Shown here piece by piece: positions 9,893 to 12,187 of a stretch of DNA of 64,000 nt. The stretch lies in NCBI RefSeq assembly GCF_003334335.1, contig NZ_QOWQ01000025.1, one strand, 5' to 3'. The stretch comes from Escherichia coli (GTDB lineage Bacteria > Pseudomonadota > Gammaproteobacteria > Enterobacterales > Enterobacteriaceae). How positions within the stretch are numbered: position 1 is the first letter of the stretch; every line of letters begins with the position of its first letter. A program made the position numbers and the translations under genes. A model generated the notes under the pieces. The model had not been told where the DNA came from. It saw nothing but the letters and a program-made list of their open reading frames with translations, and did not search any database.

Positions 9893-12187
9893 TTACACCT
9901 GTGCGACGTTATACCATGTGCCATTGATGTATTTTTGTATTGGTCTGAATACTGCGGGATCATCACCATCGACTTCACCGACAATACCAAGCCCGGTAAT
10001 TACGTGCCCTGCTTTCTCATACATCACCCCTTTCTGCATGGTCTGGACAACTCGAGTCCCAAGCCGGATATCGCGTACATAACGGGAATCAAAATTACTA
10101 TAGTTAGATGGTGATACCTGACCGTTAACAGCAAACGTGATGCTGTTATCTGTATTTCTCTGACTGTAAAAATGCCAGCCTGCATCATCACCTAATTCAG
10201 TCACCACCGGACGACTTGAGTTTCCCCACAAATTGAATGCGGCTTCCTTCGTGGATGTATTACTGCTGCTGACCGTGAATTTTTTCCCGCTACCGGCACG
10301 TACTTTGGTACTTGAGGCAATATCACCAGTAACACTCAGGCCATGCCCCATTGACACTCCGCCATTAGCGTTATTGATAGTCAGCGGCCTTAAACCGTTC
10401 CATGTCCCAAATTTATCGCCAGAGGCCGTCAGCATTAAATATGTGCTGCCGCCATCATTCCTGATAAAGAATCCATAATTGCCATAAGCAATGCGCAGAC
10501 CATTAGCACTGAGTGATGTAATCTCACCTCTTGAACGGAGACCATAAGCGGAGCTGAGTGATAATTCTTCCTGAGCGTCATAGTTTCCTGTCGCCCAGCG
10601 AATTACCCCGCCCTGTACTGTTTCATGCCAGATAGTGTCTCCTTCTCCACCACGAAACTTTCTGAGATATTTTTTGCCGCCTCTGGTGCCTGAACATAAG
10701 GCCGTAGACATATAGGCATTCTGGCTTCCGCCATCCTGATTAATCGTTCCGGTCATTGCGTCGCCCTGACGATTCCAGTCACGACGCCAGCCGGGGGAGT
10801 AGCCGTCCCCATGATTAATGTAAGTGAATTGCGCGCTGGTTGTACCGCCACCACTTGATGTTGTCGGCGTGGTCACTCGAATAGTGATTGCAGATTTAGT
10901 TCCCATGACCTCGACGACACAACCAGCCAGGTGGATATCACCACATCCGGTATCCGTAATGATTTTGTTATTTGCATATGACCAGGAGCCTTTGCACATC
11001 CAGTACGGATGATTAAATGCACCACGGGAATCCAGCCATTCAATAAACTGAGCGGTTGTCCAGTTTCCGGCTTCAGTGCTCAAAGCGCCGCTATAAGCAC
11101 GACAGGCACCGATATTTTTCGTGAAGGTATCCTTTCCCGGAATATCCGCACCGTTCTGATCTTTCTGAAGACGTTTTTCAGCATTGTCATAGGCAGACTT
11201 CACCGCTTTTGATGTTGCAGCCAGCGTTTCAGAATCGCTGTTGGTGGCGCTACTGAGCTGGACAAGACCTTTTCGCGCTGTGGTGGCATCCTGTGCAGTG
11301 TATTTCCCGTTAGCAAGGTCATACGCTGTCTTAACCGCCTTTGGTGTTGCCGCAAGCGTTTCAGAATCGCTGTTGGTGGCGCTACTGAGCTGAACAAGGC
11401 CTTTTCGCGCGGTGGTGGCGTCCTGTGCAGTGTATTTCCCGTTAGCAAGGTCATATGCTGCCTTTACCGCTTTCGGCGTTGCGGCGAGCGTTTCAGACAT
11501 GCTGTTGGTCGCACTACTGAGCTGGACAAGACCTTTTCGCGCTGTGGTAGCGTCCTGTGCGGTATATTTCCCGTTAGCAAGGTCATATGCGGCCTTAACC
11601 GCTTTCGGCGTTGCGGCCAGTGTTTCAGACGTACTGTTGGTCGCACTGCTTAACTGAGTAAAACCTTTTGCGGTCAGCGAGGCGTCCGGGTGACGTCGTG
11701 ACTGTTCATGCTCTGCAATCTTGTCATCAACGTAATCCTGCGTTGCCATCACCGTTGTGGTGTCAATAGTCAGCTCCACTGAGGCCACACTGCTGACGAT
11801 GATGACCATGCGGCAGGTCTGCGAACGCCCTGAGCCTTCGGCAAGGGCAGGCTTATAACTTTCGGCCATGTTCGCCACGGCAATTAACGTTCCCGCATCA
11901 TCGTACAGGCCAAGCTCACGCATCCAGAAACCGCCCACCTCCGGCGGAATAACCAGCTCTGCGATAATATAATTACTGTTTCGTTTGTCCTGGCTGATTT
12001 TGTTCAGCGCATGTCGCCAGACTTCATGGATAAGCCCGGTCTGTCCGGCATCCGGGACAGGCAATTTACCCCCGCCATCCCCGACGGCCATCGTGGTAAT
12101 GTTGACCTTCCGCCCTCCCGGTGCGGTTGCCGCTGCCAGCTTTGCTGCACCGGCAGTGGTGATAACGGTTCTGAATTTTGTGCTCAT
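9893..12187 (-). CDS. H: Tail fiber protein H with internal 44-aa tandem repeats
   Basis: 764-aa ORF; conserved P2 H-like N-terminus (MSTKFRTVIT...), repeat region, variable C-terminus. Confidence 0.9.
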   Translation of the reverse strand: MSTKFRTVITTAGAAKLAAATAPGGRKVNITTMAVGDGGGKLPVPDAGQTGLIHEVWRHALNKISQDKRNSNYIIAELVIPPEVGGFWMRELGLYDDAGTLIAVANMAESYKPALAEGSGRSQTCRMVIIVSSVASVELTIDTTTVMATQDYVDDKIAEHEQSRRHPDASLTAKGFTQLSSATNSTSETLAATPKAVKAAYDLANGKYTAQDATTARKGLVQLSSATNSMSETLAATPKAVKAAYDLANGKYTAQDATTARKGLVQLSSATNSDSETLAATPKAVKTAYDLANGKYTAQDATTARKGLVQLSSATNSDSETLAATSKAVKSAYDNAEKRLQKDQNGADIPGKDTFTKNIGACRAYSGALSTEAGNWTTAQFIEWLDSRGAFNHPYWMCKGSWSYANNKIITDTGCGDIHLAGCVVEVMGTKSAITIRVTTPTTSSGGGTTSAQFTYINHGDGYSPGWRRDWNRQGDAMTGTINQDGGSQNAYMSTALCSGTRGGKKYLRKFRGGEGDTIWHETVQGGVIRWATGNYDAQEELSLSSAYGLRSRGEITSLSANGLRIAYGNYGFFIRNDGGSTYLMLTASGDKFGTWNGLRPLTINNANGGVSMGHGLSVTGDIASSTKVRAGSGKKFTVSSSNTSTKEAAFNLWGNSSRPVVTELGDDAGWHFYSQRNTDNSITFAVNGQVSPSNYSNFDSRYVRDIRLGTRVVQTMQKGVMYEKAGHVITGLGIVGEVDGDDPAVFRPIQKYINGTWYNVAQV
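11190..11680. repeat. Tandem 132-bp coding repeats (about 4 copies) inside tail fiber gene H
   Basis: Units beginning GCGTTTCAGA at about 11223, 11355, 11487 and 11619; protein repeat YTAQDATTARKGLVQLSSATNS.SETLAATPKAVKAAYDLANGK. Confidence 0.85.

Follow-up and report, generated by a model that had tools for sequence, protein, structure and literature searches.

A run of tandem repeats inside a prophage tail-fiber gene raises the question of what the repeats are, whether they are stable and what they contribute to the fiber. The gene lies at 9893-12187 on the minus strand of the window, which is the whole 64,000-nt stretch of Escherichia coli contig NZ_QOWQ01000025.1 analyzed here. It is an open reading frame of 764 aa matching PHROG 381 'tail fiber protein' (E = 2e-266), and it is gene H, the tail-fiber protein of a P2-like (Peduovirus) prophage. 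NCBIfam returned no family match for H. Directly downstream is gene G, the tail-fiber assembly chaperone (9362-9889, minus strand; PHROG 136 'tail fiber assembly protein', E = 1e-80), and directly upstream is gene I, a baseplate protein (12198-12725, minus strand; PHROG 48 'tail protein', E = 1e-96), both in the position that they hold in P2. The next genes of the late operon on the same strand are J (12718-13626) and W (13631-13978), which were assigned from position alone, and V (13975-14610), which was confirmed with PHROGs. The V-W-J-I-H-G synteny of a P2-type late operon is present in the window and agrees with the P2 annotation. The surrounding prophage is also of this type, with positions 1340-25000 being 96-97% identical to L-413C, GMS190 and R18C, and with the L-413C prophage backbone at 96% nt identity over 79% of positions 1-25000.

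The two ends of H have different affinities. The N-terminal baseplate-attachment domain (aa 1-151; 11735-12187, minus strand) matches PF12571 (Phage_tail_fib, E = 3e-58) over model positions 1-150 of 150. The distal receptor-binding part (aa 342-764; 9893-11164, minus strand) is a mosaic of a Mu S'-like segment, a Gp34_trimer domain and a Mu S-like C-terminus. A PDB sequence search placed the Mu S' match at aa 334-487 (8ju3, E = 2e-69) and also returned 5yvq and chains of T4 gp34, and the Gp34_trimer domain is found at aa 541-604 (PF21446, E = 2e-23). The anchor is homologous to that of P2 gpH, as indicated by the PF12571 match and by 96% nt identity in the first repeat unit, whereas the distal module differs from that of P2 and is Mu S/S'-like. 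When the gene was compared with P2 (AF063097) by megablast, two joined pieces covered 48% of the query at 88.2% identity. Distal mosaicism of this kind is normal in P2 gpH-type fibers and does not affect the orthology of the whole gene.

Between these two parts, H contains an array of four in-frame, head-to-tail units of 132 nt (44 aa) at 11165-11692 on the minus strand. The earlier note had reported four such repeats at 11190-11680. The repeats are confirmed by Tandem Repeats Finder (11186-11629, period 132 nt, 3.4 copies, 89% matches, zero indels, score 676), by the four in-frame units and by four Pfam matches; the location also holds, but the true array reaches slightly beyond both ends of that interval. 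A repeat search returned three 226-nt copies at a spacing of exactly 132 nt. Each unit is a full-length match to PF03406 'Phage tail fibre repeat' (Phage_fiber_2), covering model positions 1-41 of 42 at aa 170-210, 214-254, 258-298 and 302-342, with an exact tandem spacing of 44 aa and scores far above chance. The tandem arrangement occurs within a phage tail-fiber protein, given the PF12571, PF21446 and PHROG 381 matches and the flanking I and G genes. The earlier note had missed that the repeat is a catalogued family and that two copies of it are already present in P2 gpH. It had correctly put H at 95 residues longer than P2 gpH (764 versus 669 aa); two extra units account for 88 aa of the excess, and a longer, different distal module for the other 7 aa. 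Four short open reading frames lie wholly inside the array in other frames (11200-11454 and 11464-11646 on the minus strand, 11241-11393 and 11412-11657 on the plus strand). Their translations are periodic and they are artefacts of the repeat rather than genes, as had been proposed for the spurious short frames on both strands.

The four units are not interchangeable. Unit 1 (aa 166-209; 11561-11692, minus strand; HPDASLTAKGFTQLSSATNSTSETLAATPKAVKAAYDLANGKYT; PF03406 E = 5e-21) has a distinct N-terminal edge that joins the anchor domain, and its start (HPDASLTAKGFTQ) differs from those of the other units. It is 96% identical in nucleotides to unit 1 of P2 and of the Yersinia phage vB_YpM_46, and 61-78% identical to units 2-4 of its own gene. 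The internal units are unit 2 (aa 210-253; 11429-11560, minus strand; E = 8e-19), which is 96% identical to P37 unit 2, and unit 3 (aa 254-297; 11297-11428, minus strand; E = 6e-20), which is 94% identical to vB_YpM_46 unit 3. Unit 3 is absent from the three-copy phage P37, whose units correspond to window units 1, 2 and 4. Unit 4 (aa 298-341; 11165-11296, minus strand; E = 3e-18) forms the junction to the distal module and has a different end from the other units (SAYDNAEKRLQ). It is 96-97% identical to the last unit of vB_YpM_46 and of P37, and from its AATxKAVK core onwards it can be aligned with the one repeat of Mu tail-fiber protein S and the sequence that follows that repeat.

The units had been described as near-identical, with the proviso that non-identity at the DNA level on alignment would count against the claim. 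Near identity stands only for the protein, and only for the internal units 2 and 3 (95% aa identity). On alignment, the DNA identity between units of the array is 61-87%. Units 2 and 3 are 87% identical in nucleotides, and their codon differences comprise 13 synonymous and 2 non-synonymous changes. A similar bias is seen across the array in 49 four-copy genes, where per-codon differences are 0.143 synonymous and 0.027 non-synonymous. Since same-position units of vB_YpM_46 and P37 are 93-97% identical to those of the window, compared with 61-87% within the gene, the units are old paralogues maintained by purifying selection at the protein level, and not a fresh duplication. The array had also been considered recombination-prone, but its units are closer to their positional counterparts elsewhere than to their own neighbors, and the array is old and stable.

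Copy number nevertheless differs among related phages and prophages, a comparison that the earlier note had called for. There is one unit in L-413C, two in P2, three in P37 and four in vB_YpM_46. Among the best 120 protein clusters, 116 have a complete array and contain 2 to 6 units, and the 44-aa spacing is kept in all 120. The 73 complete H genes sampled from IMG/VR, defined by an N-terminal domain at least 98% identical to that of the window H, have two copies in 15 cases, three in 2, four in 47 and five in 9. The top-scoring matches favor four-copy queries and the IMG/VR loci were picked by N-terminal identity; because of this survey bias, the frequencies, and a 3-fold higher diversity of the array than of the anchor, are indicative only. 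H genes that are otherwise near-identical contain anything from 1 to 6 units, and their arrays always differ by whole 44-aa steps. Copy number has therefore changed over evolutionary time. Gain and loss are confined to internal units, with the first and last units retaining their distinct edges; in five-copy arrays the added unit is of type 2 or type 3. Four copies is the commonest state in the close relatives sampled (47/73), and the feature is an ordinary one. P2-like H genes number 413 in IMG/VR, and 2626 complete E. coli genomes contain matches to H. Of 5426 such genomes, 175 contain at least 80% of the window H allele, and the best-matching of these have the full 2295 nt at 97-98% identity. 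The vB_YpM_46 gene is 98.0% identical over the whole 2295 nt. The PF03406 repeat and the four-copy allele are already known from Pfam, from sequenced phages and from many E. coli genomes. Literature searches turned up no paper that treats the number of these units in P2-like phages.

The end of the array is the point at which H genes part company. Past the last AATPKAVK, they diverge into at least six distal module types, and it is at this conserved core, in the last unit, that the different distal modules are attached. In Garcia et al. 2008, as summarized in PMC7460101, the homology between P2 and L-413C is given as stopping at aa 207, where unit 1 ends. The alignment of Mu S with H likewise begins at the single Mu S repeat and continues onward. 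The shared repeat may act as a patch of homology that lets unrelated tail-fiber genes (P2 H, Mu S and lambda Stf-type) swap receptor-binding ends, and units that recombine unequally but in register by homologous recombination, or that slip against each other, would change the copy number. Two other ideas about variation were rejected. In the IMG/VR sample, two-copy arrays carried the P2-type junction every time, which suggested a strict coupling of copy number to distal module; however, the window-type junction occurs with 2, 3, 4, 5 and 6 units in the wider protein sample. An invertible segment was also considered as a source of fiber variation, but only two weak pairs of inverted repeats (72-73% complementary) are present in or near H.

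The H gene of this P2-like prophage therefore contains four copies of PF03406 between the anchor (aa 1-151) and the mosaic receptor-binding part, and these are very probably a modular repeat and a site of module joining. The most likely role of the repeats is that of a modular stretch of the trimeric fiber shaft between the baseplate anchor and an exchangeable receptor-binding end. Each unit in the trimer would add one structural module to the proximal shaft, and copy number would set the length or flexibility of the shaft and not receptor specificity. Copy number may in this way affect fiber length or reach. The conservation of the repeat at the amino acid level across fibers with different receptors could reflect a role beyond spacing, such as setting the register of the trimer, docking the chaperone or letting the fiber fold back onto the sheath.

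Structural information on the repeat is limited. AlphaFold2 in monomer mode was given units 2 and 3 three times over, with Gly/Ser linkers of 40 residues between the copies and a tiled alignment of 14 rows built from diverse unit pairs. With this shallow alignment the pseudo-trimer had a mean pLDDT of 27.8 and a pTM of 0.18, which makes the model unusable, and the only recurrent element in it is a helix of about 11 residues (PKAVKAAYDLA) in every unit. A PDB sequence search with the array found the motif only in entries of Mu tail-fiber protein S (5yvq/9ki1 and 8ju3), once in each, and no experimental structure of a PF03406 repeat was confirmed among these chains. In the Mu structure, the fiber was built for the N-terminus only (PMC11915804). 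Ghosh et al. [quoted passage not shown]

The earlier note implied a hypervariable contingency locus, in which frequent recombination between near-identical units would give mixed fiber lengths within one lysogen or lysate. The copy-number polymorphism of the relatives fits this explanation, as do the almost identical adjacent units of a few of them: units 2 and 3 of contig L036 are 99% identical with an exact run of 123 nt, and adjacent units of L014 are 96% identical with an exact run of 98 nt. The units of these few relatives are freshly homogenised, and the window array gives no sign of instability. Its adjacent units are just 78%, 87% and 78% identical, and the longest exact in-register runs of 26, 27 and 38 nt are near or under what RecA usually requires to recombine efficiently. 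Positional orthology is maintained across independent phages, the array of the independent IMG/VR contig L039 is identical to that of the window, and the top-matching E. coli genomes share the 2295-nt gene length. The near-identical DNA units needed for high-frequency copy change were not found in the window, where identity is 61-87% and orthology is positional, and a contingency locus is very unlikely. Even less credible is an assembly artefact that gave the repeat a false number of copies. Short-read assemblers can collapse or expand 132-nt tandem repeats, and many database homologues are labeled 'partial' and end in or near the array. However, every unit has private substitutions (13-39% divergence), which would allow reads to be placed uniquely, the frame is open through 764 aa, and the same four-unit order is seen in the vB_YpM_46 genome, in 47 IMG/VR contigs and in complete genomes.

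Two further explanations concern function. The array might serve as an evolvable ruler, in which internal 44-aa units are gained and lost by unequal crossing-over, shaft length is fitted to receptor depth under O-antigen or capsule, and copy number is a second host-range determinant that is independent of the tip. The data allow this since a single tip type is seen with 2, 3, 4, 5 and 6 units, but it is considered unlikely. Somewhat less probable again is that the repeats are binding units. Each would recognize a conserved partner, for instance a glycan on the host surface, chaperone G or the tail sheath when the fiber is stowed, and copy number would tune avidity. The very high amino acid conservation across fibers with unrelated anchors and tips is consistent with binding, as is the presence of the repeat in 2721 clusters at 50% identity, and a globular body was tentatively seen at Pf2 in a collagen-like prophage fiber protein (Ghosh et al. 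2012, PMC3368898). [quoted passage not shown] A modular shaft segment with a joining site at its distal end is the preferred reading.

The discovery value of the array is small, the repeat being a catalogued Pfam family and the exact four-copy allele having already been sequenced in phages and in many genomes of E. coli. For annotation, the frames at 11200-11657 should not be called, and for assembly, the array frequently breaks short-read contigs and leaves many homologues in databases as partial entries. In tail-fiber engineering, the conserved AATPKAVK core that closes the array offers a natural place for fusions, and anything from 1 to 6 units is tolerated. The array is thus a candidate handle for altering fiber length while leaving anchor and tip untouched.

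Among the closest known systems, the tail-fiber protein of vB_YpM_46 (QKE55600.1, 764 aa) agrees with the window protein in length, in the identity and order of its four units and in its distal module, and differs by a few substitutions, such as T instead of M in unit 2. The P37 protein (QIW90047.1, 720 aa, annotated 'tail fiber repeat protein') has a window-like architecture without an equivalent of unit 3. P2 gpH (AAD03286.1, 669 aa) shares the I-H-G position, a near-identical anchor and unit 1, and a PF03406 tandem with 44-aa spacing, but has two units rather than four; its last unit joins another distal module (..AVKTVMDETNKKAPL), whereas that of the window joins the Mu S/S'-like module (..AVKSAYDNAEKRLQKDQNGADIP). 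L-413C gpH (AAP04455.1, 913 aa), from a Yersinia phage, resembles the window protein in the anchor, unit 1 and the Mu-like distal junction (..NDNANSRLAKNQNGADI), but has a single repeat unit and a different and much longer distal part. The family itself (PF03406 Phage_fiber_2, InterPro IPR005068) was first described in lambda Stf and also occurs in Mu S and in collagen-like fiber proteins of EHEC prophages. Like those of lambda Stf and Mu S, the window units belong to a tail-fiber protein that would be trimeric. In 14 diverse unit pairs the invariant positions are G, L-S, S-E, AATPKAVK and D. Mu S has one unit, while some prophage fibers have 10-12 units with alternating 44- and 56-aa spacing. 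The window units do not differ in kind from this family, in which copy number and neighboring domains vary by protein.

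The window contains a P2-like prophage with an ORF at 9893-12187 (-, 764 aa) that is gene H, the tail-fibre gene, of a Peduovirus. The encoded protein has the tail-collar fibre N-terminal domain PF12571 (aa 1-151, the anchor), four matches to PF03406 (Phage_fiber_2 or Pf2, "Phage tail fibre repeat"; aa 170-342), each nearly full length with E of 5e-21 to 3e-18, and the Gp34 trimerisation domain PF21446 (aa 541-604). A baseplate gene in the I position (12198-12725) and a tail-fibre assembly gene in the G position (9362-9889) adjoin H, which is the I-H-G order of P2. P2-like phages such as L-413C, GMS190 and R18C are 96-97% identical to the window over 1340-25000. 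The CyaR/RyeE sRNA (Rfam RF00112, 100.7 bits) is located at 1238-1323 (+), right at the left prophage edge, and its position relative to the start of P2-like phage homology at about 1340 suggests integration of the prophage at the P2 attachment site next to cyaR. The flanking chromosome is that of E. coli, with a thiMD-rcnA region 100% identical to several complete genomes. This region also has an ordinary TPP riboswitch (RF00059, 71.2 bits) at 51256-51352 (-).

The tandem repeat in H is real. Tandem Repeats Finder gives a period of 132 nt with 3.4 copies, 89% matches, 0 indels and a score of 676 at 11186-11629. A repeat search of the window found 226-nt copies at a spacing of exactly 132 nt, and no sign of an invertible segment at H. 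In the frame of H the repeat resolves into four 44-aa units, head to tail without gaps, all on the minus strand: unit 1 at 11561-11692 (aa 166-209), unit 2 at 11429-11560 (aa 210-253), unit 3 at 11297-11428 (aa 254-297) and unit 4 at 11165-11296 (aa 298-341). The earlier note had placed the array at 11190-11680, which is nearly right; the true array goes beyond these limits by about 12 nt at the upper coordinate and 25 nt at the lower. The spurious short ORFs that it attributed to the repeat do exist mechanically on both strands (11200-11454 and 11464-11646, -; 11241-11393 and 11412-11657, +) and are shadow frames with periodic translations.

The earlier note had described the units as near-identical. 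Units 2 and 3 share 95% amino acid identity; pairwise DNA identity among the units is 61-87%. Neighbouring pairs are 78%, 87% and 78% identical, with longest exact in-register runs of 26, 27 and 38 nt, and of the codon differences that separate units 2 and 3, 13 are synonymous and 2 non-synonymous. The edges of the array are also distinct, unit 1 having HPDASLTAKGFTQ in place of AQDATTARKGLVQ at its N-terminal edge and unit 4 having SAYDNAEKRLQ in place of AAYDLANGKYT at its C-terminal edge. The same-position units of Yersinia phage vB_YpM_46 and phage P37 are 93-97% identical to each window unit, and unit 1 of P2 is 96% identical to window unit 1. The units are thus old paralogues under selection on the protein rather than a recent duplication. 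The observation of the earlier note is borne out, and its interpretation in part; its description of the units as near-identical fails on the refuting condition that it had itself set, non-identity of the units as DNA, although the repeat is real.

Recent exchange between units seems to have occurred in other arrays. In the IMG/VR locus IMGVR_UViG_3300045988_127872 units 2 and 3 share 99% identity and an exact run of 123 nt, and in a second locus (L014) neighbouring internal units are 96% identical with an exact run of 98 nt. This pattern points to recent in-register unequal recombination or gene conversion/duplication; these two arrays look freshly homogenised, whereas the window array does not. 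Only internal units are gained or lost: all arrays begin with a type 1 unit and end with one of type 4 or another junction type, and the additional unit of five-copy arrays belongs to type 2 or 3. Across 49 four-copy genes the array has about 3 times the diversity of the anchor (mean pairwise identity 0.941 vs 0.982), a contrast that is indicative only since the loci were chosen by anchor identity. Most of the excess is synonymous (0.143 synonymous differences per codon in the array vs 0.046 in the anchor), and amino acid identity of the array stays at 97%. Since conservation is mainly at the amino acid level and silent differences are many, the repeat is kept for protein function, and its use as a recombination patch would be a by-product.

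Directly after the last AATPKAVK core the sequences split into several unrelated continuations, including the P2-type VMDETNKKAPL, a Mu-like YDNAEKRLQKDQNGADIP, NDNANGRVP and LANGKQPADATL. The junction type of the window (…QNGADIPGKDTFTKNIGACRAYS) occurs with 2, 3, 4, 5 and 6 units, so that copy number varies independently of the tip, the receptor-binding end. From unit 4 onward the window protein aligns with the Mu tail-fibre protein S, starting from the single repeat of Mu S. The distal part of H (9893-11188, -; aa 334-764) is a mosaic with a Mu S'-like segment (aa 334-487; PDB 8ju3, E 2e-69) and PDB sequence matches to Mu S plus the T4 gp34 trimerisation domain (aa 550-627) and to the Mu S C-terminus (aa 676-763). 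Because of this Mu/T4-like distal half, the receptor specificity of the window H is probably unlike that of P2. The junction pattern fits horizontal exchange of tail-fibre modules, reportedly a long-standing picture from Haggård-Ljungquist et al. in 1992. Aa 207, the end of unit 1, is where P2/L-413C homology ends according to PMC7460101 (citing Garcia et al. 2008). Two homologues, P0009 (585 aa) and P0010 (591 aa), match the window H at 100% identity over the first 346 aa and then end early in unrelated C-terminal tails; frameshifts or truncations of this allele, or assembly errors, probably account for them. Many H homologues carry the label 'partial', with breaks inside or close to the repeat.

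The best-supported reading is that each unit would form one structural module of a proximal trimeric shaft, with the anchor on one side and the exchangeable receptor-binding end on the other. More units would presumably give a longer reach, and the highly conserved motif may have a binding or register-setting role. An AlphaFold2 pseudo-trimer of linker-joined units 2 and 3 has a pLDDT of 27.8, and the sole element that recurs in it is an approximately 11-residue helix at PKAVKAAYDLA. In a PDB sequence search only Mu S entries had chains with the repeat motif, and the repeat region of the Mu fibre is not part of the model built in PMC11915804. Ghosh et al. (2012, PMC3368898) described Pf2 as little understood and tentatively placed a globular body at its position.

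The prophage also has cargo genes near H, which are the more interesting part of the neighbourhood. A two-gene Pycsar anti-phage system (14711-16613, -) lies in a low-GC island (GC 0.32-0.38, with flanks at about 0.58). It occupies the P2 orf30 slot, with tail-completion gene S (16629-17090) on one side and baseplate gene V (13975-14610) on the other. The PycTM match (16074-16613, -; 179-aa membrane protein, E 9e-28) and the PycC cyclase match (14711-16099, -; 462 aa, E 1e-128) overlap by 26 nt. The P2 fun(Z) slot, between G and sheath gene FI, has an AT-rich 259-aa ORF on the opposite strand (8431-9210, +; GC 0.33-0.35). It matches PHROG 7729 (unknown function), has no match in PADLOC or NCBIfam, and its region shares 99.1% identity with a gene of L-413C that has no name and is annotated 'hypothetical protein'. 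From its position it is a candidate for an uncharacterised gene of lysogenic conversion or defence.

A two-unit query scanned against 1.84 billion representative proteins gave 2721 clusters at E <=1e-3 and 89 at <=1e-30. The 120 best protein clusters have 2-6 copies, always at a spacing of 44 aa. In prophage fibres P0121 and P0122, 10-12 PF03406 units make up a higher-order repeat with spacing alternating between 44 and 56 aa and the linker GKAPSSHTHPWNQITGVPTA. Within this family four units are unremarkable. From IMG/VR, 80 loci were sampled with an H N-terminal domain at least 98% identical to that of the window; the 73 complete H ORFs have two (15/73), three (2/73), four (47/73) or five (9/73) copies, and the array of one locus (L039) is identical to that of the window. 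At least 80% of the window H allele is held by 175 of 5426 complete E. coli genomes, and the best complete-genome matches all cover the same 2295 nt, with identities of 97-98%. These counts and matches indicate that four copies are usual for the close relatives sampled and that P2 is the short one. The feature is thus a domain repeat that was known before, in an allele that had been sequenced before, and its copy-number polymorphism is of the ordinary evolutionary kind. L-413C gpH (913 aa) has one unit, P2 gpH (669 aa) has two and P37 H (720 aa), which is annotated as a "tail fiber repeat protein", has three, without an equivalent of window unit 3. The window H exceeds P2 gpH by 95 aa, the figure given in the earlier note; two units supply 88 aa of this, and a different distal module, longer by 7 aa, supplies the rest. 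The H of vB_YpM_46 (764 aa) has the same four units and is 98.0% identical to the window gene across all 2295 nt.
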